Below are positions 43,647 to 56,100 of a DNA stretch of 64,000 nucleotides, one piece after another. Every line of letters starts with the position of its first letter. Positions within the stretch are counted from its first letter, which is position 1. The position numbers and the translations under genes are program-made. Below the pieces are notes generated by a model. The model saw only the letters and a program-made list of their open reading frames with translations, did no database searches and was not told the origin of the DNA. Source of the stretch: Actinomycetota bacterium. Lineage in GTDB: Bacteria; Actinomycetota; UBA4738; HRBIN12. The DNA lies in the NCBI GenBank assembly GCA_036390995.1, contig DASWAT010000083.1, positions 3,052-67,051 on the forward strand, in the 5' to 3' direction.

Positions 43647-43943
43647 TCACCGCGACGCCTCCACGCAGGACACGCCGTCCGCTCCCACGGTGGCCGCGTG
43701 CTCGGTCCCCGGGTCCATATCCAGCCGGTCGCCCTCCGCGAGCTCGACGTCGCCCTCGCGCGTGTGGAACACGATCGATCCCTCCAGGCAGAAGAGCACC
43801 TTGTGGTAGTCGTGCGTGTGCCAATCGTACGCAGCCCTCGGCGCGTTGCTCCACGGCCGGGGAGCCGAACAGGCTTCGTCGCGGAAGGCCGCGAGCGCCT
43901 CTTCCCGTCCGGGGACCGCTGCCCGGGTCCGCAGGGCGCCCAC
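43647..43943 (-). CDS. Cupin-domain protein
   Basis: WHTHDYHKVLFCLEGSIVFHTREGDVELAEGDRLDMDPGTEHAA cupin beta-barrel motif. GTG at 43943 is chosen because the upstream ATG (44030) would overlap the AccE-like gene. Confidence 0.5.
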   Translation of the reverse strand: MGALRTRAAVPGREEALAAFRDEACSAPRPWSNAPRAAYDWHTHDYHKVLFCLEGSIVFHTREGDVELAEGDRLDMDPGTEHAATVGADGVSCVEASR

Positions 43944-43971
43944 CGGGATCCGATCCTCGCCGGCCTCTGGG

Positions 43972-44238
43972 CTACCGCGCGTCGCTTCGCCCGGTGAGGA
44001 TCGGCACCCCCGGCCGAACGAACCGGGCATGCCCCAGCATGCCCCAGGCCGAGTCGGCGTAGGGCCGGGCCTGGAGCGCTCCCCATCCCGTGGCCTCGAT
44101 ACGGCCGGCGAGCACCCACGGATGGGGGCGCGGGCTCTCCTGGGCGAAGTACCGCTCGAGGGCGCGCAGCACGGCGCGCTCTTCCTCGGGGGAGAGGCCC
44201 TCGGGCACCTCGAAGCTGCGTTCGTGCGTCATCGGCAC
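43972..44238 (-). CDS. Putative acyl-CoA carboxylase epsilon subunit (AccE/PccE-like)
   Basis: 88 aa, 7 nt downstream of pccB. GLSPEEERAVLRALERYFAQE...SAW resembles the ACC_epsilon family pattern (PEE-ϕAAϕ-ϕ-ϕL...W), and its position matches the canonical pccB-pccE arrangement. Confidence 0.45.
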   Translation of the reverse strand: MPMTHERSFEVPEGLSPEEERAVLRALERYFAQESPRPHPWVLAGRIEATGWGALQARPYADSAWGMLGHARFVRPGVPILTGRSDAR

Positions 44239-44244
44239 CTCACC

Positions 44245-45834
44245 TCACAGGGGGATGTTGCCGTGCTTGCGGGCCGGCACGGCTTCGCGCTTGGTCGCCA
44301 GCATGTTCAGCGCGCGGATCAGCCGGGGACGCGTCTCGGCGGGCTCGATCACGTCGTCGACGTATCCCCACTCGGCCGCGACGTAGGGGTTCGCGAACTT
44401 CCGCTCGTACTCGGCGATGAGCTCGCCCCGGCGCCGCACCGGATCCTCGGCCTTCTCGATCTCCTTCTTGAAGACCACGTTCACCGCGGCGTCGGGGCCC
44501 ATCACCGCGATCTCGGCGGTGGGCCAGGCGAACGAGACGTCGGCGCGAAGGTGCTTGGAGTTCATGACGAGGTACGCGCCGCCGTATGCCTTGCGGGTGA
44601 TCACGGTGAGCCTCGGCACGGTGGCCTCCGCGAACGCGTACAGGAGCTTCGCCCCCCGCCGGATGATCCCGCCGAACTCCTGCGCGGTCCCCGGCAGGAA
44701 CCCCGGCACGTCCACGAACGTGACGAGCGGGACGTTGAACGCGTCGCAGACCCGCACGAATCGCGACGCCTTCTCGCTGGAGTCGATGTCGAGCGTGCCG
44801 GCGAGCACCTTCGGTTGGTTCGCCACGATGCCCACCGTGCGGCCGTCCAGCCGCGCGAACCCGACCACGATGTTCATGGCCCAGAACGGGAAGACCTCGA
44901 AGAAGTCGCCGTCGTCCATCACGCGGCGGATCACCTCGTGCATGTCGTACGGCTCGCGCGCGGAGTCTGGGATCAGATGTGTGAGGCCCTCGTCGTGGCG
45001 CTCGGGGTCGTCGACCGGCGCGTACGAGGGTGGGTCCTCGAGGTTGTTCGACGGCAGGTACGAGAGGAGGTGGCGGACCATCGCGAGGCACTCCTCCTCG
45101 TCCGTGGCCACGAACGACGCCACACCGGAGCGCGACGCGTGGGTCATCGCCCCGCCGAGCTCCTCGAACGTCACGTCCTCGCCGGTCACGGTCTTGATCA
45201 CGTCGGGGCCCGTGATGAACATGTGCGCGGTCTCACGCACCATGAACGTGAAGTCGGTCAGGGCCGGCGAGTAGACGGCGCCGCCGGCGCACGGCCCGGT
45301 GATCACGCTGATCTGGGGGATCACCCCGGAGGCCCGGACGTTGCGCTCGAAGATGTACCCGTAGCCGGCCAGGGACGCCGCGCCCTCCTGGATCCGCGCC
45401 CCGCCCGAGTCGTTGATCTGGATGAACGGCGAGCCGGTGGACATCGCGAGGTCGAGGACCTTGCAGATCTTCTGCGCGTGCACCTCGCCGAGCGAGCCGC
45501 CGAACACCGTGAAGTCCTGCGAGGCCGCGAAGGCGCGCCGGCCGTCCACGGTACCGTAGCCGGTGACCACGCCGTCGCCCGGCGGCCGGTTCCGGTCCAT
45601 CCCGAAGTCGTGGGACCGGTGCGCGACGAGCGGATCCGTCTCCTGGAACGAATCCTTGTCGAACAGCAGGTCGATCCGCTCGCGGGCGGTGAGCTTGCCG
45701 CGCTCGTGCTGCTTGCGGACGGCCTCCTTGCGGCGCTCGTCGAGCATGGCCGCCTTGCGCTTGCGCAGCTCCTCGATCCGCTGCTCGACCGTCACGACGG
45801 GGACGGCGGGCGGCTGTTCCTCGGTCTTGGCCAT
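44245..45834 (-). CDS. pccB: Propionyl-/acyl-CoA carboxylase carboxyltransferase beta subunit
   Basis: 529 aa carboxyltransferase with [33 protein letters not shown], and [11 protein letters not shown] motifs. Confidence 0.9.
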
Positions 45835-45969
45835 GGTCCCCGGAGTCTACCGTCGGTGCGGCGATGGGGCTCCGGGACGGGCCCACGGCGTGGCCGCGAT
45901 CGTCCGTGCGTGCTTGACCGGCTCTCGGCCCCCGGCGAGACTCCGTGCGGGGCTCGCGAGGAGGGGACG

Positions 45970-46455
45970 ATGCCGACGTCCTGGTCATGGTTCACGTTCT
46001 GGCTCCTCGTGCATCTGCTGGCCGTCGCAGTGGCGCTGGGTCCGACGTTCGTCTTTCCACTGATCATCCGCTTGTCCGAGCGTCGACCACGGCACGCCGT
46101 CTTCGGCAAGGAGCTCGACGTGTTGATCCAGACGCGCCTGGTCCTGCCAGCGCTCCTGGTGGCCGGCCTCTCCGGTATCGGACTGATCGTGACCGCGAAC
46201 GTGGATCCGGCCGGCTCCGAGTGGCTCCTGATCTCGCTGGGGCTCTACGCGGTGTTGCTGGCGTTCTCCGTGGCGATCCAACTGCCGGCCACCAGGCGAG
46301 CGGTAGTGCTGCTGCGCGACGCGGCCGGCGGCGACCCCTCGCCGAAGCTCGCTGCCGTGAACCGTCAGCTGCGCCGCGCCGGAGGCGTCCTGTCGATCCT
46401 GTTCCTCTCGATCCTCGTGCTGATGATCTGGCGGCCGGGCGCCGCCGTGGGTTGA
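45970..46455 (+). CDS. DUF2269-like 4-TM membrane protein
   Basis: ATG 45970 after gaggagggga. Four TM helices (WFTFWLLVHLLAVAVALGPTFVFPLI etc.). Confidence 0.55.
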   Translation: MPTSWSWFTFWLLVHLLAVAVALGPTFVFPLIIRLSERRPRHAVFGKELDVLIQTRLVLPALLVAGLSGIGLIVTANVDPAGSEWLLISLGLYAVLLAFSVAIQLPATRRAVVLLRDAAGGDPSPKLAAVNRQLRRAGGVLSILFLSILVLMIWRPGAAVG

Positions 46456-46516
46456 GGGGGGCGAGGAGCCCCCGGAGGTCATCCGGGGGCTCTCGCGGGT
46501 GAGGTCGTCGCTCGCG

Positions 46517-47872
46517 CTAGGTGTAGAGCGTCACCTGGCCGGCGATCCTGCCCTGCTCGTCGAACAGGAAGGCCGTGACACCGTACATGCCCTCCCAGCC
46601 ACCGCTCCCGTGGTAGAGCTCGAGGTACCCGGCGAGCCGCCCCCGGATGGTGACGTCGGATGCCCGTTCGAGCGTCAGATCGCCGAACTGGTTCATCGAC
46701 GTGAGCGCCCCCCGGATCGCGTTGCGACCCTCGTAGACGTCCGGCGTCGTCCCGTCGGTCGTGACCATGATCGCGTCCTCGGCGTAGAGCTCGGCCGCCG
46801 CGTCCATGTTGCCGGTGCTGATGGTGGCGAGCAGCTCGTCGATGGTCGCCACCCGTTTGCTGATCGCCTTCGGTTTGATCCACGTCCCCGCCGACTCGGG
46901 GCCGGACGTGTAGAGCGTCGCCTGGCCGGCGATCCTGCCCTCCTCGTCGAACAGGAAGGCGGTGACACCGTACGTGCTCTCCCAGTTGGTCCCGTGGTAG
47001 AGCTCGAGGTACCCGGCGAGCCGCCCCCGGCCGATGACGTCGGATGCCCGTTCGAGCGTCCAGTCGCCGGACACGTTCATCGAGGTGAGCGCTCCCCGGA
47101 TCGTGTCGCGTCCTTGGACGACCTCCGGGATGGACCCGTCGGTCGTAACCATGGTCGCGTCCTCGGCGTAGAGGTCGGCCGCGGCCTGCATGTCATGACT
47201 GCTGATGGTGGCGAGCAGTTCGTCGATCGCCGCCTCGGCGTTCAGCGGCACCGGCGTCGGCAGCCTCGCCGGCTCCGAGGGCGCGAACAGGCTCACGCCC
47301 ATGACGACGAGGCCGACGGCGACCACCAGGCCGGCGAACGGCAGCCAGCGGAAGAGCCGTGGCCGCCCGGCCTTCTCGGGCCGGACCTCGGGGAGCTGCA
47401 TGCTCGGGATCCGGATCTCCTGCCGTGCCTTGCTGTCCATCTCGGTTCCCCCTTCCGATGGAGCGGTGCGTGGCTCGGCCGCCGGTCCATGGGCCGGAGC
47501 CGTCCCCGCACCGATTGCCCCGTGAGCGGCAAGGGCGGATCGTCCGCGGAGGCGGACGATCACGAGCGCGCTGACCCCCAGCAGCACGATCCCCGCGCCG
47601 ATGGCCAGGGTGGGCAGGACGACCCCCGCCACACCGTCGCCCGGGGTCGTCGGGGCCGAGACCCCGCCGGCCGGCTGCGTCGCACCCTGCTCGCGGAGCG
47701 CGAGCAGGGCGCTGCCGATCCCGACGGCGGCGATCACCAGGCTGGCGACGATCGTGGCGATCCGCTGGGTGCGGAGCTTGCGCTCTCGCCGTCGGACCAG
47801 GCGATCCATCGCCGGCTCGGGCATGTCGAACCGCCGGCCCGCCCGCTCGAGCATCACAGACGTGTCCCTCAT
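46517..47872 (-). CDS. Sigma-coupled 3-TM membrane protein (putative anti-sigma/sensor) with two tandem NTF2/SnoaL-like domains
   Basis: ATG 47872-47870 overlaps the sigma stop (ATGA). N-terminal MRDTSVMLER...RRRERKLRTQRIAT, three TM helices, then two approximately 80%-identical NTF2-like/SnoaL_2 (DUF4440-like) repeats (ATIS..MD/QAAA[DE]LYAEDA.MVTTDG...GRLAGYLELYHG...GVTAFLFDE.GRIAGQ.TLYT). Confidence 0.6.
   Translation of the reverse strand: MRDTSVMLERAGRRFDMPEPAMDRLVRRRERKLRTQRIATIVASLVIAAVGIGSALLALREQGATQPAGGVSAPTTPGDGVAGVVLPTLAIGAGIVLLGVSALVIVRLRGRSALAAHGAIGAGTAPAHGPAAEPRTAPSEGGTEMDSKARQEIRIPSMQLPEVRPEKAGRPRLFRWLPFAGLVVAVGLVVMGVSLFAPSEPARLPTPVPLNAEAAIDELLATISSHDMQAAADLYAEDATMVTTDGSIPEVVQGRDTIRGALTSMNVSGDWTLERASDVIGRGRLAGYLELYHGTNWESTYGVTAFLFDEEGRIAGQATLYTSGPESAGTWIKPKAISKRVATIDELLATISTGNMDAAAELYAEDAIMVTTDGTTPDVYEGRNAIRGALTSMNQFGDLTLERASDVTIRGRLAGYLELYHGSGGWEGMYGVTAFLFDEQGRIAGQVTLYT
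46524..47297. repeat. Intragenic in-frame tandem duplication (2 x 387 bp) encoding two NTF2-like domains
   Basis: Copies at about 46524-46910 and 46911-47297, for example gtgtagagcgtcacctggccggcgatcctgccctgctcgtcgaacaggaaggccgtgacaccgtacatgcc versus gtgtagagcgtcgcctggccggcgatcctgccctcctcgtcgaacaggaaggcggtgacaccgtacgtgct. The protein repeats are about 80% identical. Confidence 0.7.
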
Positions 47873-48366
47873 CGTTGCGCTCCGAGTTCGTCCTTCATGG
47901 CCGCCCGCGCCTCGGCTGCGAGCGAGCGGACCGACGTTGGCTTGACCCCGAGGAGCCGGCCGGCCTCGGCCGACCCGTACCCGAGCAGGTCCGTGAGGAC
48001 GACGGCCGCGCGCTGGCGCCGCCCCAGCTTGCCGAGGGCCCGCAGGACGGCGTCGCGGAGATCCGCTTCCTCGTAGGGGTCGTTCGATCGGAGCGGCTGG
48101 ACCACCACGCGGGCGGCCCGCAGCACCCGTCGCTTCCGACTTCGGAACCCATTCATGGCCGACCGGTACAGGTAGCCGGTCGGCTTCTCCATCTCGCGCA
48201 CCCGGTCCCACCGCTCCCAGATGTGGAGGAAGGCGTCCTGGGTGAGCTCCTCGGCCTCGTGCGGGTCACCCGTCATGAGGCAGAGCGCCCGGAAGAGCCC
48301 TCGACGCTCGGACTCGAAGAACTCCTCGAAGGTCGCCGCGCCCGTGGTCGCGGTCGCTTGGGCCAT
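47869..48366 (-). CDS. ECF (sigma-70 family) RNA polymerase sigma factor
   Basis: Start at MAQATATTG (ATG 48366) with RBS gggaggga. Region 2 (DAFLHIWERWDRVRE, YLYRSAMNGFRSRKRR) and region 4 (QRAAVVLTDLLGYGSAEAGRLLGVKPTSVRS). Confidence 0.8.
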   Translation of the reverse strand: MAQATATTGAATFEEFFESERRGLFRALCLMTGDPHEAEELTQDAFLHIWERWDRVREMEKPTGYLYRSAMNGFRSRKRRVLRAARVVVQPLRSNDPYEEADLRDAVLRALGKLGRRQRAAVVLTDLLGYGSAEAGRLLGVKPTSVRSLAAEARAAMKDELGAQR

Positions 48367-48410
48367 GGGCCGTCCCTCCCGAACGGCCAGTGCCGCGAAG
48401 GACGTGTACG

Positions 48411-48434
48411 CGCTCACGTCCCATGAACGCTCGG
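48411..48434 (-). promoter_or_regulatory. Conserved dyad element upstream of ECF sigma gene 1 (candidate autoregulated promoter/operator)
   Basis: + strand cgctcacgtcccatgaacgctcgg (sense strand CCGAGCGTTCATGGGACGTGAGCG), 45-68 nt upstream of ATG 48366. A near-identical element sits in the same position relative to the second sigma gene. Confidence 0.35.
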
Positions 48435-48663
48435 TCCGCCCTCGTCGTCCACCGGGCCCTGCTCGCGAGGGTCGCCCGAGCGTCCGGGGAGATCCGTGTG
48501 CCCCGAGTCCCCATGCTCGATGGGGCTCGCCCCGTCACCAAGGGCCTATCGGGCTATGGTCCACAGGACCGGTCGGCGACCGGCTCGAAGGACGACACCG
48601 CGGGACCGGGCGTGGCCGGTCCCTGCAACCCGCGCCCGGTCCCTGAACCAGGTGAGCCCTTGG

Positions 48664-49692
48664 TTACCCTCCGATCACCCGGAGCATGACCGCCGGGAAC
48701 ATCCGATCCGCGCTCGTGTTCCCCGTTGCGCATGTCACGGCGTAGAGGCCCTCGTCGAGGGGCCACGAACGGAGCGTGCCCGAGCCGACGATGTACTGCG
48801 CGTCGGTCACCCACGACGGCGGCGCCGAGGGGGGGTCACGACGGCTCGACCGCTCGACCTGCTCCCATGTGACGCTGGGTTCCAGGCTCGCGAGCGTGAG
48901 CCCGGAGCTCTTCGCGGCGGTCGTGTACCGGAAGATCCCCACGGTACCGGCGGCGACTTCCGTCGGACCGGCGTAGGAGCACCGCGTGCCGTCGAAGGTC
49001 ACCTGTGCCTCCATGACCGAGCTCGTCGTGTAGGGGACGATGGCGGTCGCGCCGGTCCCGCTCGGGGGGGCCGCCGCCTCCTCGCCGGAGCGGTCGATCA
49101 ACACGAAGGTGCCGAGGGCGACCAGCCCCGCGGCGAGCACGATCACCGCGATCGTGAGCCACCGGTTCGTGCGGCGGACCCTCCCGTCGTCCATGCGGAT
49201 GTCGGGAAGACGCACGCCGCCTGTCGTCTCGATCCGTGACTTGCTGTCCATGGTGGTACCTCCCTCCTCCGTCCCGGCGCGCGTGCCGGTCGCCGGTCCA
49301 TGGCCCGGACCCGGTGACGCGCCGGTTCGTCGCTCGTGTGCGCCCGATGCCCCGGGGCGAGCCCGGAGTCGGGCGATCGTCATGGCGGTGAGCCCCACCA
49401 CGGCGATGCCGATCCAGATGGCCAGGGTCGGCAGGACGAAGCCCGCGATCCCGTCGCCGCCGGGAGACGGCGGCGACGAAGCTCCGCCGGCCGGCTCCAT
49501 GGCGCCGCCCTCCCGCAGCGCGAGGAGGGCGCTGCCGATCCCGACCACGGCGATCGCCAGCGCCCCGACTACGGTGGCGATCCGCTGCGCGCGCAGCTTG
49601 CGCTCCCGCCGACGGAGCAGGCGTTCGATCGCGGGCTCGGGCATGGGGACCCGTCGCTCGATGCGCTCGAGGGTGGACCGGTAATCAGGCAT
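48664..49692 (-). CDS. Second sigma-coupled 3-TM membrane protein with unrelated beta-rich C-terminal domain
   Basis: ATG 49692 overlaps the sigma-2 3' end by 8 nt. N-terminus and TM region are collinear with the 46517-47872 product (MPDYRSTLERIERRVPMPEPAIERLLRRRERKLRAQRIATVVGALAIAVVGIGSALLALREGGA...), but the C-terminus is a different domain (TAIVPYTTSSVMEAQVTFDGTRCSYAG...). Confidence 0.6.
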   Translation of the reverse strand: MPDYRSTLERIERRVPMPEPAIERLLRRRERKLRAQRIATVVGALAIAVVGIGSALLALREGGAMEPAGGASSPPSPGGDGIAGFVLPTLAIWIGIAVVGLTAMTIARLRARPGASGAHERRTGASPGPGHGPATGTRAGTEEGGTTMDSKSRIETTGGVRLPDIRMDDGRVRRTNRWLTIAVIVLAAGLVALGTFVLIDRSGEEAAAPPSGTGATAIVPYTTSSVMEAQVTFDGTRCSYAGPTEVAAGTVGIFRYTTAAKSSGLTLASLEPSVTWEQVERSSRRDPPSAPPSWVTDAQYIVGSGTLRSWPLDEGLYAVTCATGNTSADRMFPAVMLRVIGG

Positions 49693-50185
49693 GGTCGTGC
49701 TCCATCGCTCGCCGGAGCGCCGCCCGGCCCTGGGCAGCGAGGTTCCGGATCGTGGTGGGTCGGACGCCCAACAGCTCCGAAGCCTCGGAGGATCCGAAGC
49801 CGAGGAGCTCGGTCAGGACCAGCGCCGCGCGCTGCCTGGGGGCGAGCCCGCGGAGCGCCCGGACCACCTCGTCGTGCAGATCGGCGCGCTCGTACGGGTC
49901 CTCGGACGTCTGCGACGGCAGGAGCTCGCGGGTCATCCGCGCCAGGCGTCGCCGCCGGCTGCGGAACCCGTTCATCGCGGTCCGGAACAGGTAGCCGTCC
50001 GCGTGCTCCATCTCGCGGACCCGGTCCCAGCGCTCCCAGACCGCCAGGAACGCGTCCTGGAGGATCTCCTCGGCCTCGCCGACGTCGCCGGTCATGAGGT
50101 AGACCGCCCCGAACAGCCGGCGCCGCTCGGCCTCGAAGAACTCCTCGAAGGCCCGGGCGGGCGCGAGGACGGTCTCTTGGGCCAT
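49685..50185 (-). CDS. ECF sigma factor (paralog of 47869-48366)
   Basis: Start at MAQETVLAPARAFEEFF (ATG 50185) after ggaggagggacgg. Region 2 (DAFLAVWERWDRVRE, YLFRTAMNGFRSRRRR) and region 4 (QRAALVLTELLGFGSSEASELLGVRPTTIRN). Confidence 0.8.
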   Translation of the reverse strand: MAQETVLAPARAFEEFFEAERRRLFGAVYLMTGDVGEAEEILQDAFLAVWERWDRVREMEHADGYLFRTAMNGFRSRRRRLARMTRELLPSQTSEDPYERADLHDEVVRALRGLAPRQRAALVLTELLGFGSSEASELLGVRPTTIRNLAAQGRAALRRAMEHDHA

Positions 50186-50229
50186 CGGCCGTCCCTCCTC
50201 CACGGCCACGGACCCCGACGGCGCGCATC

Positions 50230-50253
50230 CGTTCACGTCCCATGAACGTTCGG
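50230..50253 (-). promoter_or_regulatory. Conserved dyad element upstream of ECF sigma gene 2
   Basis: + strand cgttcacgtcccatgaacgttcgg, containing a perfect inverted repeat CGTTCA-N7-TGAACG, 45-68 nt upstream of ATG 50185. Confidence 0.35.
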
Positions 50254-50347
50254 GAGCGGATCCGCGTCTAGACGCCTCGATGCTCGTTCGGAACCGGTTC
50301 GGCCGGCAGGGGCGTTGGGCCCCTCGGGCGGGTGCCCGGGTCCGACC

Positions 50348-50897
50348 TCAAACGTCCACGCGGCCGCCGGTCCGCCAGTACTCGCCGCGCTCGCGGGCCA
50401 GGAAGCCCTCGTCCACCAGGTACCGGCGGAGGGACGCGTGGTCGTTGAGGAAGCGGCCGACGATGACGTTGACCTGCTTCTCGTCGTAGCGGACGCCGGG
50501 CTCGAACTCGAGCGCGATCCGCTCGAGCACGATGCGCCGCTTCGTCTCCTTCGAGGGGATCTCGACGAGGCGGCCGTTGCGGAAGAAGGCCCGGAGCACC
50601 GCCTCCTCGCTCTCGTCGGCGGCCCCCAGGGCGATGCCGGTCTCCCTGGGCGGCCCGACCTGCTCGGCGGCCCACCGGAGGGTCTCGGGCAGCCGATAGA
50701 TCCGGCGGTCGTCCTGGAGGCGGACCACCCCGGTCCCGGTGAGACGGTTCAGGTGCTTGCGAACCCGCGCGAGCGGCAGGCCGAGCTCCGACGCGAGCTC
50801 CCCCGCCGGTGAGCGCCCGCCGTGCCCAGGCACCCGCGATGGCCAGGCGCTCGGGGTCGGCCAGCGCTCGGAGGATCTCCTCGGGGGTCTCGGCCAT
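50348..50897 (-). CDS. ArsR-like HTH + DUF2087 regulator, apparently frameshifted in the HTH (possible pseudogene or sequencing error)
   Basis: The N-terminus MAETPEEILRALADPERLAIAGA is in one frame (ATG 50897-50895). The rest of the HTH and the DUF2087 domain (GELASELGLPLARVRKHLNRLTGTGVV...LRRYLVDEGFLARERGEYW) is in the -1 frame of ORF 50348-50833. The switch occurs around the C5 homopolymer at 50811-50815. Confidence 0.5.
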
Positions 50898-51855
50898 GTC
50901 GGTGGCTACTCCTACCATCCGGAGCGTGGAGGCAACCATCCCGCTCACCGCGACCCAGCGAAGGACGCTCGATGGCCTCATCGGCACCGGTGAGCGCCCC
51001 ACGTTCCCGGGCGACCTCGTGTCCCGGGTGCGGGACCGTATCGAGGAGGCAGCCCGCGGGTGCGAGCTTGCCGAGCCCCTGTGGCTCGGCAAGTCGAACC
51101 TCAGCGATCTCGGGCGGTGCCCTGGCCTGTTCGACGCCGTCCGCGCGGGAGAGCGGGGCCCGTTCGCGTTCTCGGCGCGGTTCGCCGCCGGCCGCCTCGC
51201 GCACAAGGCGGTCGAGCTGGAGGTCGCCGGGCGCGAGGACCGGGATCCGCACGGTCTGGTCCAGGAGGCCGTGGATCGCCTCGTCGAGGACGACGCCTTC
51301 CGCGCGTTCTGGGACGGGCTCGACCACCTCCGGCGCGACGAGACCCTCATGGAGTCGGCGAAGTCGCTCGAGCTGTTCCGCTCGACGCTGCCGCCGCTCC
51401 GGCGGATGCGCCGGGACCTCGCTCCCTCCACCGAATGGCACGTGCGTGCCGAGCTCCTCGGCGGCGCGGTCGTGCTCTCGGGGACCCTCGATCTGGTCCT
51501 CGGCTCCTCCTCGGCGGCCGAGCCCACCCGGGCAACCCGGCTGGCGATCGACCTGAAGACCGGCCGGGCCTGGCCCGAGCACGCGGAGGACATGCGCTTC
51601 TACGCGCTCCTGCTCGCGCTCCGCTTCGGCGTGCCTCCGTACCGGGTCGCGACGCTGTACCTCGACTCGGGGGAGTGGGTGGCCGAGGACGTCGACGCCC
51701 GGGTCCTCGACCGGGCAGCCGACCGCGTGATCGACGCTGTCCGCGCAGTCGCCGCCGCCTCGGCGGGTCGGGCGCCTGTGCTCCGTCCCGGTCCCTACTG
51801 CACCTGGTGCCCGCGCGCGGCGACGTGCCCATCCAGCGCCGCCCGCATCGCCTGA
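50896..51855 (+). CDS. PD-(D/E)XK nuclease, Cas4/RecB-like with 4-Cys Fe-S cluster signature
   Basis: An N-terminal Cys (LSDLGRCPGLF), motif II (GTLDLVLG), motif III D-x-K (RLAIDLKTGR), the QhxxY-like RFYALLLA, and a C-terminal C-x2-C-x5-C (YCTWCPRAATCP). This is the Cas4/AddB-type Cys ligand arrangement. Confidence 0.65.
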   Translation: MSVATPTIRSVEATIPLTATQRRTLDGLIGTGERPTFPGDLVSRVRDRIEEAARGCELAEPLWLGKSNLSDLGRCPGLFDAVRAGERGPFAFSARFAAGRLAHKAVELEVAGREDRDPHGLVQEAVDRLVEDDAFRAFWDGLDHLRRDETLMESAKSLELFRSTLPPLRRMRRDLAPSTEWHVRAELLGGAVVLSGTLDLVLGSSSAAEPTRATRLAIDLKTGRAWPEHAEDMRFYALLLALRFGVPPYRVATLYLDSGEWVAEDVDARVLDRAADRVIDAVRAVAAASAGRAPVLRPGPYCTWCPRAATCPSSAARIA

Positions 51856-51948
51856 TCGCCCACCACGCATCCGCCCGCATTTGTCGGCCCCCCGGGCCTC
51901 GCCTATCGTGCCGTTCGTCCGTCCGTGGCCTTCGAATGGGGTGAAAGC

Positions 51949-53190
51949 ATGGGCAAGGACCTGTACGAGATCGGCGAGATCCCGCCCGTCGGCGAGGTGC
52001 CGAAGCGGATGCACGCGCAGCTCGTCCGTCCCGACCGGTACGGCGAGCCGAAAGACGCGATCCGGGACGAGGTGATCGACGTTCCCGAGATCGGGCCGCA
52101 CGAGGCGCTCGTGATGGTCATGGCCGCAGGCGTGAACTTCAACAACGTGTGGGCCGCGCGCGGCGTGCCGGTCGACGTGACGAAGACGCAGGCCCGCTGG
52201 GGCGAGCCCACGGACTTCCACATCGTCGGCTCCGACGCCTCCGGGATCGTGTACGCGGTCGGCTCGGAGGTCACGAGCGTGAAGGTCGGCGACCGCGTGG
52301 TCGTGCACGCCGGGCAGTGGGATCTGGACGACCCGTGGGTGACGGGCGGCGGCGATCCCGGCCTCGCGGCGACCTTCCGCGTGTGGGGCTACGACTCGTG
52401 CTGGGGCTCGTTCGGCCAGTTCTGCAAGGTCCAGGCCCACCAGTGCCTGCCGAAGGCCGAGCACCTCACGTGGGAGGAAGCCGCCGCCCCCACGCTCACC
52501 GGAGCCACCGCGTACCGGATGCTCCACGGCTGGCCGCCGAACACCGTCAAGGAGGGGGACGTCGTCCTGGTGTGGGGGGCGTCCGGCGGCCTTGGCTCGC
52601 TGGCGGTCCAGCTCGTCACGCTGGCGGGGGCGAAGGCGGTCGGCGTGGTCTCGAGCACGGAAAAGGGCGAGTTCGCGACGTCCCTCGGGGCGGTGGGCTA
52701 CATCAACAGGAAGGACTTCGACCACTGGGGCGTTCCGCCGACGTGGGACTCGCCCGAGTGGAAGCAGTGGTTCGACGGCGCGAAAGCCTTCGGCAAGGCC
52801 ATCTGGGACGTGCTCGGCGAGCGGCGAAGCCCGAACATCGTGTTCGATCATCCCGGGCAGGACACGATCCCTACCTCGATCTTCGTGTGCGAGCGGGGCG
52901 GCATGGTCGTGATCTGCGCGGGGACGTCCGGGTACGACACGATGGTGGACGTCCGGTACCTCTGGTACCTGCAGAAGCGCTACCAGGGTTCGCACCTGTT
53001 CAACGACGAGCAGGCGGCCGCGTTCAACGACCTCGTGCGCGAGGGGAAGGTACAGCCCACGCTCGGCCACACCTACCGCTATGGCGAGAGCGGGGAGGTC
53101 CACCAGCTCATGGGCGGAGGCCGTCTCCCAGAGGGCAACGTCGCCGTCCTGATCAACGCGCCGGGGCCGGGCCTGAAGGACCTGCCCTAG
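51949..53190 (+). CDS. ccr: Crotonyl-CoA carboxylase/reductase family enoyl-CoA reductase
   Basis: Collinear similarity to Ccr: VPEIGPHEALVMVMAAGVNFNNVW, HIVGSDASGIVY, TWEEAAAPTLTGATAYRML, VLVWGASGGLGS, VVSSTEKGE, IVFDHPGQDT, AGTSGY...VRYLWYLQKRYQGSH. Confidence 0.7.
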   Translation: MGKDLYEIGEIPPVGEVPKRMHAQLVRPDRYGEPKDAIRDEVIDVPEIGPHEALVMVMAAGVNFNNVWAARGVPVDVTKTQARWGEPTDFHIVGSDASGIVYAVGSEVTSVKVGDRVVVHAGQWDLDDPWVTGGGDPGLAATFRVWGYDSCWGSFGQFCKVQAHQCLPKAEHLTWEEAAAPTLTGATAYRMLHGWPPNTVKEGDVVLVWGASGGLGSLAVQLVTLAGAKAVGVVSSTEKGEFATSLGAVGYINRKDFDHWGVPPTWDSPEWKQWFDGAKAFGKAIWDVLGERRSPNIVFDHPGQDTIPTSIFVCERGGMVVICAGTSGYDTMVDVRYLWYLQKRYQGSHLFNDEQAAAFNDLVREGKVQPTLGHTYRYGESGEVHQLMGGGRLPEGNVAVLINAPGPGLKDLP

Positions 53191-56100
53191 CCGGCGGACG
53201 CCTCGTCCACCTCGAAGAGGAACGCCCGCGCGCCGCAATCGACGAGGATCTCGCGGGCGCGTTCGAAGACGGGGGAGGGGTCCTCGCCCGTACGGGACAT
53301 CGCACGGCCGAGATCGACCATCGCCCGCGCGGCATCGATCCGTAGTCCGAGTTCTTCGAGGGCCGTGGCGCCGTCGGCGAGCAGCCTTCGCGCCTCGACA
53401 GGATCGTCGGCGAGGAGCCCCTCCATCAGGAGCGCGTTGGCACGCGCGGCCGGCGAGCGGCCGTGCTCGGACAGATCATGGTACGCCTCCGCCTCGTTTC
53501 GCCGTCCGGCGCGGATGAACGACCGAGCGAGGTCCGTGAACGCCTCCGGGATGTAGTCGACGTTGAAACCTCGCACGTCCGCGACGAACCCCACGAAGCA
53601 CGCGGCCGCCTCGTCGTTCGCGCCCCGCACGAGCGCGAGGAGGCCCTTAACGAGAGGGATCAACACGTCACTCTGCGGCTCGGGGTTCGCGTGGAGGAAC
53701 GGGAGCGATCCGAGATGCGCGGCCTCCGCCTCGTCGAGGTGCCCCGCGAACAGCAGCGCCATGGCGAGTCCCGTCAGGCGCATCCCGCGGAGCGGCTCGT
53801 CACCGACCTGAACGGCGAGGTCGATCGCCTCGCGCTGGAGGGCTTCCGCTTCGGCGACCCGACCGAGCCGGAGCACGACGTCGCCGAGGCTCCCGACGAG
53901 CCATCCGACGTGCCCGAGGGCGCCCGCGCGTCTGGCGACCTCGAGTCCCTCGCGGAGCACCTCCTCGGCCCGCCGACCGTCCGACGCGAAGTCGGCGAGG
54001 ACCGACGCAAGGTTGTTGTAGCAGCGCATCAGGTTCGAGAACTCCCCGACCTCCTTGGCCAGGCGGTACGCCTCCTCGAGCGTCTCGACGGCCTCTGCCG
54101 AGCGGCCCGTCTGCGAGATACACACGCCGAGCGTCTGCGTCGCTTCCGCGTGGACGAGCGGAGCGTCGACGCGCCGAGCCATCTCGACGGCGCGGCGCAG
54201 CAACGGCTCCGCCTCATCGGTCCGGCCCCGACGCCACAGGAACCACCCGAGGCGGTGGAGCGCGTCGGCGAGCTCGACCCGCTCCCCGAGTGGCTCGAGC
54301 GTCGCAACGGCGCCCCGTCCCGCGTCCTCGGCTTCCTCGTGCCGCGCGAGCGTCAGCAGCGGCAGCACGGCCTGTGCGCGCGCCCAGCCGATCCCCACCG
54401 GATCGCCGATCTCCTCATACGCGGCCAGGGCTTGCCCGAGGACCCGGACGCCCTCCTCGATCGGGTCGGTGCCCCACGAGGCGTCCGCGTGCGCTCGGGC
54501 GAGCTCGGCCCGGTCTCGGGCGGGGAGGCCGAGCGCGTCGGCCAGGTGCTCCGCCTCTCGGAACCATCTGGTCGCTTCTGCCCGCTGCCAGAGCGCCGCG
54601 GTCCGTTCCCCCGCCGCCTTCGTCCATCGGAAGGCGAGCCGTCGCAGCTCGGTCCGTCGCCCGCCGGTCTCGCCGAGCTCGTCGAGGTACCGGAGCGCCT
54701 CGAGCAGGTGGCTCGCGATGAGCTCGGCGATCTCCTCGGCGCGGTCGCCCGCGCGCCGCTCGGCCCACCGGGCTACGCCCGCGTGCTTCTCGGCGCGGAG
54801 CGCCTTCGGCAGCGAGTCGTACGAGCCGTCGCGGATCAGGTTGTGGCGGAACGAGAACTCGTGCTCATCGGAGAACGACGAGGGCTCGTGCGGTACCACG
54901 AGCTCCTTCACGCGCAACCGTCCGAGCGCGTCCCGCACCTGACCCATCTCCCGGCCCGTGAGCTCGCCGACGGCGCCGACCCAGAAGACCCTGCCGACGA
55001 CGGCCGCGTCCTGCAGGATGGTCTTCTCGTCGTCGGGGAGTCCGTCCAGCCGCGCGGCGATGAGCCCTTGGACCGAGCGAGGGAGCTCGACGTCCTCGAC
55101 CGGACGCGCGACCTCCCACCGGGAGGCCTCGGTCGCGCGGAGCACGCCGTCGTCGATCAGCTTGCGGACGATCTCCTCCACGTAGAGCGGGTTGCCCTCG
55201 CTCCGCTCGACGATCGTTCGCTTCAGGTCGGGCGCGATCTGCCCCGGGAGCAGGTCGTCCAGCATCGCCTCGCCCTCGGCCTCCGAGAGCGGATCCAGGT
55301 AGATCGAGGCCGCGTTCCGCTTCCCGCCACCCCACGTCGGCCGCGTCTCGAACAGCTCGGCGCGCGCGGTGGCGACCATCATGATCGGTCCCTGCGCCCA
55401 ATCGGCGACGTGATCGACGAAGTCCAGGAGCCCCTCGTCGGCCCAGTGGAGGTCGTCGAGGACCACCACGAGCGGGTAACGAGCGGCCAACCGCTCGAGG
55501 AACCGGCGCCAGGTCTCGAACAGCTCCTCGCGGCTCATCGAGCGCGGCTCCCCGGCGCCCACGAGCACGCGGATCTGTGGCGCGACGCTTTCGTCGCCGA
55601 ACAGCTCGCGGACCGCGGCGTCCGCCTTCTTCCCGGCGACCTCCGCGAGGTCGTCGTCGAAGATCTCGCATTGCGCCTTGATCGCGTCGGCGAAGGCCGA
55701 GTACGACGTGTTGCCGTACGCGAGGCATCGACCGCGGCGCCAGTACATCGTCTGCGGCAGTCCCTCCACGTAGCGCTCGAGCTCGGCGACCAGGCGCGAC
55801 TTCCCGACGCCCGCCGGCCCCACGATCGTGACGAGCGCGGGTCGCCCCTCGGCCTCCACCCGCCGGAGCGTCTGCTTGAGGACGGCGAGCTCCTCGTCCC
55901 GCCCCACCAGCCGGGCCTCCAGACCCAGACGCGGTCGCTCGCCTCGAACGCGCGCCTTGATGCGGAGGGCCCGCCACGCCGGCACGGGCTCGGCCTTGCC
56001 CTTCAGCGTCAGCGGCTCGAGCTCCCGGTACTCGATCACGTCCTTGGTGCTCGCGTAGACGCCCGGTCCGACGACGATGTGGCCCGGCTCCGCCGCGGTC

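Follow-up and report, generated by a model that had tools for sequence, protein, structure and literature searches.

Tandem paralogous ECF sigma factor and putative membrane anti-sigma factor operons with probably exchangeable sensor cassettes in an Actinomycetota genome

The canonical membrane-anchored anti-sigma factors of ECF sigma factors (RseA, RsiW and RskA) are encoded at position +1 of their sigma genes, and this class was surveyed previously (PMC7826278). In that survey, three TM segments were recorded in 1 of 157 ECF groups and a single one in 82 groups, and two putative anti-sigma factors were assigned to ECF107 (PMC7826278). SnoaL-like domains are also part of ECF signalling. As pointed out in a preliminary description of the DNA studied here, they occur fused to ECF sigma factors, and the literature names groups ECF41, 56, 205, 294 and 295 (PMC7826278, PMC8999054), with SigJ of M. 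tuberculosis and SigG1 of S. tsukubaensis among the extended proteins (PMC5766207, PMC7730460, PMC8999054). In these groups the SnoaL domain is cytoplasmic and acts on the sigma2-sigma4 linker. Other arrangements are also relevant: SigM-YhdL-YhdK of B. subtilis contains a two-protein anti-sigma complex, and polymorphic toxin loci (CdiA-CT/CdiI, Rhs) carry orphan C-terminal cassettes.

The window analyzed in this study is a 64,000-nucleotide stretch of contig DASWAT010000083.1. It contains two paralogous operons, sig2/par2 and sig1/par1, neighbouring in tandem on the minus strand. We consider it likely that these are ECF sigma/membrane anti-sigma operons with exchangeable sensor cassettes, sig2-par2 representing type A and sig1-par1 type B. 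Their main features are:

50244..50270, minus strand: predicted ECF-type promoter of sig2, type A, conserved motif TAGACG-N16-CGTTC
50186..50243, minus strand: sig2 leader, from the -10 element to the ATG, with SD GGAGGAGGG and two predicted hairpins
49685..50185, minus strand: sig2, type A ECF sigma factor, 166 aa from ATG, Pfam Sigma70_r2 and Sigma70_r4_2
48664..49692, minus strand: par2, 3-TM partner, 342 aa, overlapping sig2 by ATGCCTGA
49573..49692, minus strand: par2 residues 1-40, arginine-rich cytoplasmic segment (LERIERRV.MPEPA..RLLRRRERK), putative sigma-binding module
48425..48451, minus strand: predicted ECF-type promoter of sig1, type B, conserved motif TGGACG-N16-CGTTC
47869..48366, minus strand: sig1, type B ECF sigma factor, 165 aa from ATG
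46517..47872, minus strand: par1, 3-TM partner, 451 aa, overlapping sig1 by ATGA

The preliminary description of two adjacent units of like design, with overlapping sigma and partner genes, thus holds at this place; sig2 ends in ...GACCATGCCTGATTAC and sig1 in ...CAACGATGAGGGAC, each running into its partner gene. The end of the unit had been set at 50253, which falls within the sig2 promoter, and since this promoter belongs to the unit, the true end is 50270. In-frame GTG alternatives to the ATG starts are located at 50236 (sig2) and 48417 (sig1). The tandem A-B order and the synteny recur in a JGI relative (partners approx. 70% identical to those of the window) as well as in L002, L009 and L016.

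The two sigma factors share 63% identity over 158 aa (E 1e-63) and contain no Pfam domain besides the two listed for sig2. With sigma2 and sigma4 only, neither sigma3 nor sigma1.1, and lengths inside the usual range of about 160-200 aa, both are ECF (group 4) proteins, and both score above the cut-off of TIGR02937 (sigma70-ECF; 58-65 bits versus 42.9). The best NCBIfam model was TIGR02983 (SigE-family, actinobacterial), with 112.9 bits for sig1 and 124.2 bits for sig2 against a curated cut-off of 141.55 bits, which makes them relatives of that family and not members by this criterion; the nearest solved relative is M. tuberculosis SigE (E 5e-12). Assignment to the ECF41/ECF56 type, whose sigma factors continue C-terminally into 100-150 aa of SnoaL-like sequence, was rejected, as both proteins stop a few residues past region 4.2. 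In several genomes, types A and B can be told apart by their sigma factors, partner N-termini and -35 elements, and therefore the A/B duplication is old.

Each sigma gene is preceded by its own predicted ECF-type promoter (T[A/G]GACG-N16-CGTTCATGGG), assigned by motif and position. This motif is present upstream of every sigma gene of the sig1/sig2 family (17 distinct loci), its -35 variant (TAGACG or TGGACG) tracks the sigma type across the same loci, and the 64-kb window holds only these two sites. The sig2 leader is conserved (14 leaders aligned), and a structure with weak covariation was obtained for it with RNAalifold. Both operons are probably autoregulated from their own promoters, and translation of each partner would be coupled to that of its sigma factor.

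Comparison of par1 and par2 revealed 54% identity across residues 1-199 (E 7e-47) and no significant similarity beyond, which bears out what had been proposed for the partners, namely collinear N-termini followed by unrelated C-termini. Therefore, the collinearity reaches far past the N-terminal motif initially quoted and takes in all three TM segments as well as the cytoplasmic loop between TM2 and TM3. The three TM helices proposed for each partner correspond to three hydrophobic segments in a Kyte-Doolittle scan (residues 41-59, 88-106 and 179-197 of par1; 41-59, 81-99 and 181-199 of par2). The predicted topology is N-in, C-out, and the K+R distribution agrees with it.

The C-terminal parts, described beforehand as tandem NTF2/SnoaL-like domains (par1) and a Cys-containing beta-rich domain (par2), indeed have these folds, as predicted from profiles and models:

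46907..47245, minus strand: par1 NTF2/SnoaL-like domain 1, predicted extracytoplasmic (Pfam SnoaL_2, SnoaL_3 and DUF4440; AF2 and Foldseek)
46520..46855, minus strand: par1 NTF2/SnoaL-like domain 2, 76% identical to domain 1 (AF2 and Foldseek)
48667..49029, minus strand: par2 cupredoxin-like beta-sandwich, with invariant Cys in FDGTRC, Cys in VTCATG and Met in MFPAV

In par1, SnoaL_2 was matched in two stretches (52.3 bits versus a cut-off of 27). The AF2 model of the C-terminus (pLDDT 80) gave the tandem-NTF2 proteins Lsd19 and MonB as the best Foldseek matches (E 4e-12), together with ketosteroid isomerases (TM-score 0.75-0.85 on target). Both the Pfam score and the alpha+beta cone fold place it in the NTF2-like/SnoaL superfamily. 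As in ECF41, 56, 205, 294 and 295, an NTF2/SnoaL-like domain has thus been recruited to ECF signalling; in contrast to these groups, sig1 and sig2 are minimal sigma factors (165-166 aa), and the SnoaL domains reside on par1, after TM3, predicted outside the cell. The literature searched contained no report of an anti-sigma partner that carries a SnoaL-like domain.

The par2 C-terminus yielded no Pfam match and displays the Greek-key beta-sandwich of the cupredoxin fold. Its invariant residues include C36, C119 and M129 (domain numbering), and because no His is conserved among them, the domain is not a classical type 1 (blue) copper site, which has a His, Cys, His, Met ligand set. As read from the alignment and model, the seventh strand terminates in one of the invariant Cys and the last strand begins with the invariant Met, and these are the positions of the Cys and Met ligands of cupredoxins. 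Alternatively, the two Cys may be joined by a disulfide. The ligands of the Cu(I) chaperone CupA are Cys/Cys/Met. Together with the EfeO/FtrB cupredoxin-like domain it is nearest to the par2 domain among cupredoxin-fold metal-binding domains (PDB 7wgu, 8vuk, 4f2e), at 6-17% identity and with the difference that par2 has no conserved His ligands.

The C-terminal domains belong to larger segments, each opening at an internal start-like site:

49249..49268, minus strand: par2 internal SD GGAGGAGGGAGG and invariant ATG (codon 148, 49249-49251), opening the par2 sensor cassette
47438..47457, minus strand: par1 internal SD-like GGAAGGGGGA and invariant ATG (codon 145, 47438-47440), opening the par1 sensor cassette
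48664..49251, minus strand: par2 sensor cassette, comprising the MDSK juxtamembrane segment, TM3 (aa 181-199) and the extracytoplasmic domain; the left breakpoint of L010 lies at its ATG

The anti-SD duplex energy of the par2 site (-15.2 kcal/mol) was the strongest among 54 internal in-frame ATGs, and that of the par1 site (-13.3 kcal/mol) ranked second of 54. The mean for MDSK sites was -13.65 kcal/mol (n=18), compared with -5.0 +/- 3.5 for background internal ATGs, and these SDs are stronger than those of the sigma genes themselves. The internal Met is invariant, and the SD-ATG junction is the most conserved nucleotide stretch. We give about even odds to the use of the internal ATG in the fused genes as well, which would yield a free TM3-sensor protein beside the full-length partner.

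MDSK could also be conserved as a protein motif, and this belongs to the strongest competing explanation, in which plain duplicated ECF sigma/anti-sigma operons acquired different C-termini by divergence or a single fusion long ago, the SD-like codons merely encode Gly-Gly-x-x-Met-Asp-Ser-Lys, and there is neither internal initiation nor ongoing exchange. The age of the A/B duplication agrees with this, as does the protein-level conservation of the cytoplasmic segment past MDSK, but the codons themselves do not: GGA, a rare codon that accounts for 9% of local Gly codons, encodes the first Gly of the SD in 7 of 8 distinct sequences, and the purine-rich core is kept despite amino-acid changes (GGA GCG, GGA GTG, GGG GAG). 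More directly, two pairs of near-identical genomes differ by whole cassettes, and in both the left breakpoint is the MDSK ATG. In the first, L010 matches the window at 129 of 131 nt up to the ATG, is then unrelated, and matches again at 272 of 273 nt in sig1; in the second, identity between L023 and L016 is 97-100% ahead of the ATG and reaches 99.7% over 906 nt past the cassette. Moreover, cassettes exist as genuine stand-alone genes with in-frame stops 5-70 codons upstream (L015, L032, L014 and L018 1946-2539), and the L018 orphan retains approx. 30 nt of the upstream region as non-coding DNA. It has to be mentioned that contigs were examined for seven MDSK-start proteins, and three of these (L010, L028 and L033) proved to be only truncated gene calls on short contigs, a point in favour of the plain duplication. 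Taken together, the latter is improbable.

The modular diversification after duplication that was suggested originally is hence supported by an old A/B duplication, by cassette replacement between near-identical genomes and by stand-alone and orphan genes. As read from these alignments, diversification is the replacement of a defined cassette (internal SD-ATG MDSK, TM3 and sensor domain) and not slow divergence. The same comparisons show, at the level of the compared alleles, sensor cassettes moving as units by recombining at the conserved SD-ATG junction; in this way, close strains would come to have different inputs on one sigma/anti-sigma chassis.

The N-module (approx. 40 N-terminal residues plus TM1) is widespread in Actinomycetota. 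A profile search recovered 1003 representative proteins, the majority of which share only residues 1 to ~75, with PD40/WD40/PQQ beta-propellers as the most frequent recognised C-terminal domains. A gene with this module lies directly 3' of a same-family ECF sigma gene in L011, L013 and every metagenome locus that extends far enough upstream. The partners could instead be co-transcribed membrane proteins (effectors or receptors) driven by a sigma factor that is controlled elsewhere, e.g. only by transcription. Consistent with this, neither partner matched an anti-sigma Pfam or NCBIfam model (zf-HC2, RskA or other anti-sigma domains) at E <= 0.1. Residues 1-40 contain no His and no Cys, the N-module profile had no match in PDB, and assignment to ZAS, RskA or another described anti-sigma type was rejected, given the absence of both the HxxxCxxC zinc motif and a domain match. 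Classical anti-sigma domains are approx. 80-90 aa long, and the cytoplasmic N-terminal segment of the partners is shorter. Against this reading, the partner gene of every locus occupies +1 and overlaps the sigma coding sequence, and its N-terminus is conserved and co-varies with the sigma type (residues 1-26; identity of par2 is 65-85% with type A partners, compared with 54% with par1), the outside domains being free to change. Furthermore, the partners combine sigma adjacency, TM helices and a conserved cytoplasmic region, the operational definition of putative ECF anti-sigma factors, most of which also lack a Pfam match (PMC7826278). The co-transcribed-protein explanation is less probable than the plain duplication, and by their genomic association par1 and par2 are putative anti-sigma factors.

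That paralogues were joined into chimeras during metagenome assembly, making the cassette swaps only apparent, is very improbable: the contigs are short and the junction coincides with the best-conserved nucleotides, but the cases come from separate data sets (a Logan contig and an NCBI MAG; JGI contigs against each other and an ENA contig), each needs two junctions per contig, the 12 identical nt shared by par1 and par2 at the junction look too short for a k-mer join, the cassettes found inserted are absent from the window, and P0011 and P0004 independently record both alleles of the L023/L016 case.

Like RseA, RsiW and RskA, the partners directly follow their sigma genes with translational coupling, proceed from a cytoplasmic N-terminus through the membrane to a variable extracytoplasmic domain, and stand behind a probably autoregulated ECF-type promoter. 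They differ in having three TM segments, in an N-module of only ~40 aa that matches no described anti-sigma domain, and in a sensor part with its own SD-ATG that also occurs as a separate gene. Control of a sigma factor by two membrane proteins, as in SigM-YhdL-YhdK and ECF107, is mirrored by the split forms L015, L032 and L018; in par1 and par2, in turn, both parts reside in one ORF that keeps a second start signal, and there is no sequence relation to YhdL or YhdK. The junction sequence between a constant N-terminal part and a variable C-terminal module, the downstream orphan retaining a short junction piece (L018) and the whole-module replacement between close strains resemble CdiA-CT/CdiI and Rhs loci, as an organisational analogy only, since the module is a signal-input domain with neither toxin nor immunity gene.

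In the mechanism proposed, each partner would consist of three parts: the arginine-rich N-terminus with TM1 as the sigma-binding (anti-sigma) module, a TM2 hairpin with a disordered cytoplasmic linker, and the sensor cassette, composed of the MDSK Met, a conserved 30-residue cytoplasmic segment, TM3 and the extracytoplasmic domain. The outside domain would bind a signal, a small hydrophobic ligand in par1 and, in par2, perhaps Cu(I) or the thiol redox state; this would relieve sequestration of the cognate sigma factor, which would then amplify its own operon. More tentatively, the sensor half may be an independently translatable and exchangeable cassette, occurring free, orphan or fused to the chassis, in which recombination at the junction re-wires the input of the ECF sigma factor and internal initiation co-produces a free sensor subunit tuning the full-length anti-sigma factor, e.g. 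by NTF2-type dimerisation. If this is true, closely related strains could re-wire which signal governs a given ECF sigma factor.

The window carries two autonomous sigma-partner operons (with predicted promoters), the partners of which are composite proteins with exchangeable sensor cassettes. Its proteins are on record as originating from a metagenome-assembled Actinomycetota genome, the organism being known only as a MAG, and its G+C content is approximately 71%. The four genes are arranged head to tail on the minus strand:

49685-50185, minus strand: sig2, ECF sigma gene (type A)
48664-49692, minus strand: par2, its partner gene
47869-48366, minus strand: sig1, ECF sigma gene (type B)
46517-47872, minus strand: par1, its partner gene

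Sigma and partner genes overlap as proposed in the preliminary description, by ATGCCTGA in sig2/par2 and by ATGA in sig1/par1. A tblastn search of the rest of the window revealed no extra copy of the sigma, the partner or the cassette, and scans for sigma-70 promoters and intrinsic terminators gave no match. The number of modules varies between related loci: two are present in the window, its JGI relative, L002, L009 and L016, and a single one in L001 and L006. Open reading frames at 46499-48076 (plus strand), 43816-46455 (plus) and 50749-53238 (minus), of 525-879 aa, are antisense to or overlap real genes and were discarded as typical artefacts of DNA of such G+C content. A gene for a DUF2269 integral membrane protein of 161 aa (45970-46455, plus) separates par1 from a carboxyltransferase gene and is encoded on the strand opposite to par1; the syntenic JGI contig lacks it and leaves a gap of only 101 nt. 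In two other loci, L004 (1324-2647) and L017 (3639-4208), a SnoaL-type partner is followed by a different ECF sigma (LADLYVRHAP...LLTGD), which in L004 has its own unrelated partner of 269 aa with one TM helix; ECF module arrays at this locus are therefore not restricted to one sigma family.

Both sigmas consist solely of the Pfam domains Sigma70_r2 and Sigma70_r4_2 and are 63% identical to each other. Their closest named family is the actinobacterial SigE family (TIGR02983), under whose cut-off both of them score. The system does not belong to ECF41 or ECF56, in which the SnoaL-like domain is located on the sigma and is cytoplasmic (PMC5766207, PMC7730460, PMC8999054).

The partners had been described as proteins with collinear N-termini, three TM helices and unrelated C-termini, and each of these features was borne out. 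The alignment of par1 and par2 gives 54% identity over residues 1-199 (E 7e-47), no relationship is found after residue 199, and hydropathy analysis places three membrane segments in each protein. Lysine and arginine cluster at the N-terminus, with 12 among the first 40 residues, and between TM2 and TM3, with 12-14 in that loop; the C-terminal domains are therefore predicted to lie outside the cell. Few putative anti-sigma factors have three TM helices: a published survey reports them for one ECF group of 157 (PMC7826278).

The tandem NTF2/SnoaL-like domains claimed for par1 are supported by a SnoaL_2 match of 52.3 bits (cut-off 27), and the two copies share 76% identity. An AlphaFold2 model of this part, built on a three-sequence alignment (pLDDT 80; one of five models confident), has structural matches to Lsd19 and MonB, both tandem-NTF2 epoxide hydrolases, and to ketosteroid isomerases. 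In the cupredoxin-like domain of par2, two Cys and one Met are invariant, also in P0158, the one protein retrieved in a homology search with this domain alone. P0158 (Logan contig, 181 aa) is a lipoprotein (lipobox LALAAC) composed of the cupredoxin-like domain alone, and could represent the type of gene that donated the par2 domain. Since no His is conserved in the cupredoxin-like domain, it does not form a classical blue-copper site. It may instead hold a Cu(I) or thiol site similar to that of CupA, or the two Cys may simply form a disulfide. In the limited literature collection searched, no anti-sigma partner with an NTF2-like or a cupredoxin-like sensor was encountered, and we found no report of either an extracytoplasmic NTF2/SnoaL-like domain or a cupredoxin-like Cys/Cys/Met domain on the membrane partner of an ECF sigma.

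The modular diversification suggested earlier is seen in two pairs of near-identical genomes, the members of which differ by a whole sensor cassette. In the first pair, the locus L010 agrees with par2 of the window in 129 of the 131 nt that lead up to ATGGACAGCAAG and continues with an unrelated cassette (TM3 and a SnoaL-like domain). Similarity to the window resumes in the region of the sig1 promoter, where 90/116 nt match, and within sig1, where 272/273 nt match. In the second, the first 360 nt of the type A partner gene of L023 match those of L016 and L009 at 97-100%, the similarity collapses at the internal ATG, and 99.7% identity is regained over 906 nt, starting upstream of the next sigma; the replaced segment comprises a cupredoxin-like cassette in L016/L009, and a tandem SnoaL cassette together with an additional secreted-protein gene in L023. 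Chimeric assembly is an unlikely source of these differences, since two junctions would be required in each case, the two cases come from independent data sets, and in the window par1 and par2 have only 12 identical nucleotides in common at the junction. The secreted protein of L023 (1380-1880, approximately 160 aa) has a signal peptide followed by ...VTERxxTSGVDV... and no Pfam match, and a similar gene follows a SnoaL-type partner in L005 (1437-1919).

The unit formed by a Shine-Dalgarno (SD) sequence, ATG, 30-residue juxtamembrane peptide, TM helix and NTF2-like domain is also found as a gene of its own. Genuine cases are limited to four loci:

L015: stand-alone cassette gene, with a stop nine codons upstream
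L032: stand-alone cassette gene, with a stop five codons upstream, located after a beta-propeller gene
L014: stand-alone cassette gene with its own N-terminal extension; in a second contig, the upstream neighbour is divergently oriented
L018 (L018b): orphan copy of the cassette, separated by 37 nt from the complete partner gene that precedes it

The L018 orphan retains about 30 nt of the sequence preceding the ATG; past the TM helix it resembles the full gene less and less. Among the proteins of 179-206 aa from the profile search that start with MDSK, those of L010, L028 and L033 were rejected as separate genes, as they come from truncated contigs with the frame open upstream.

Within the fused genes, a single Met (codon 148 in par2, 145 in par1), in the motif MDSK, is invariant in all family members, in a cytoplasmic loop that is otherwise poorly conserved. 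In a divergent subgroup of 3-TM partners (P0017 and P0020), MGTH stands in place of MDSK after ...RKEG[AT], the Met being kept and the next residues altered. A purine-rich core of the GGAGG type is always present 6-10 nt upstream of the internal ATG; it uses the rare codon GGA (9% of local Gly codons) and is kept even where the encoded residues change. The anti-Shine-Dalgarno pairing energies of the internal sites (-15.2 kcal/mol for the par2 site, -13.3 kcal/mol for the par1 site) rank first and second among 54 in-frame internal ATGs of eight local genes, against a background of -5.0 +/- 3.5 and values of -12.5 and -10.8 for the sigma genes' own sites. Judging from these sequence features, the chances are about even that the internal ATG is used in the fused genes, yielding a free sensor subunit. 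No internal start in an anti-sigma gene was found in the limited literature collection searched.

The first part of the partner, the N-module (the Arg-rich N-terminus and TM1), is far more widespread than the whole protein. A profile of the shared 209 N-terminal positions matched 1003 representative proteins, the whole 3-TM module being present in about 10 clusters of these matches; most others have only residues 1 to ~75 in common (LER...R..PEPA.ERL.RRRDRK.RN.RI and TM1), followed by other outside domains, among which PD40/WD40/PQQ beta-propellers are the commonest recognised (121 proteins scanned). A locus search with a narrower N-module alignment yielded three genome loci. A same-family sigma is located immediately upstream of the partner in the GTDB MAG loci L011 and L013, and in all metagenome loci whose upstream sequence is long enough. 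In residues 1-26, partners of type A sigmas carry LERIERRV and those of type B sigmas carry LE.AG.RF, a co-variation that would be expected of a contact surface. Residues 27-107 group instead by genome lineage, par1 and par2 being 68% identical to each other and 41-47% identical to their orthologues:

49372-49614, minus strand: par2 TM1-loop-TM2 region
47552-47794, minus strand: par1 TM1-loop-TM2 region

Such a grouping suggests that gene conversion has acted on the tandem copies and spared the type-specific first 26 residues. Comparison of the N-module with described anti-sigma domains and solved structures gave no match, and the system does not belong to the ZAS or RskA families. The N-module, short and widespread in actinobacteria, is a candidate new anti-sigma domain. 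The system is classed with the membrane ECF anti-sigma systems and probably works like one, the putative anti-sigma role of the partners being inferred from genomic context.

In 17 distinct loci, every sigma of the sig1/sig2 family is preceded by T[A/G]GACG-N16-CGTTCATGGG, which is laid out as an ECF promoter (a GGAC-like -35 and a CGTT -10). Its fit defines two predicted promoters:

50244-50270, minus strand: predicted sig2 promoter (-35 at 50265-50270)
48425-48451, minus strand: predicted sig1 promoter (-35 at 48446-48451)

These are the only motif sites in promoter position in the window, and a regulon search of the window with the motif gave nothing besides the two autoregulatory sites. 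Type A sigmas are preceded by the -35 hexamer TAGACG and type B sigmas by TGGACG, with no exception in the 17 loci seen, which suggests self-driving pairs insulated from each other; a single base of the -35 may insulate the two paralogous systems. The leader that separates the -10 element from the sigma start codon, about 55 nt in length, is conserved (48367-48424 and 50186-50243, minus strand, and the leaders of L001-L027). RNAalifold predicts two hairpins in it, the second around the Shine-Dalgarno sequence, with weak covariation support, including a C-G to U-A pair change in three sequences. A leaderless sigma start at a conserved in-frame GTG, 51 nt upstream and directly after the -10, is weakened by indels of non-multiples of three in L024 and L026, and the ATG starts were therefore kept.

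In the proposed mechanism, the N-terminal helix of the partner would sequester its cognate sigma, perception of a signal by the outside domain would free the sigma through proteolysis or a conformational change, and the freed sigma would amplify its own operon. If the internal start is used, one anti-sigma gene would give two products. The way in which ECF systems gain new inputs is usually inferred from deep phylogeny, whereas here the unit of exchange and its breakpoints are visible in near-identical genomes, and the exchangeable cassette amounts to a naturally occurring plug-in format for the sensors of anti-sigma factors.
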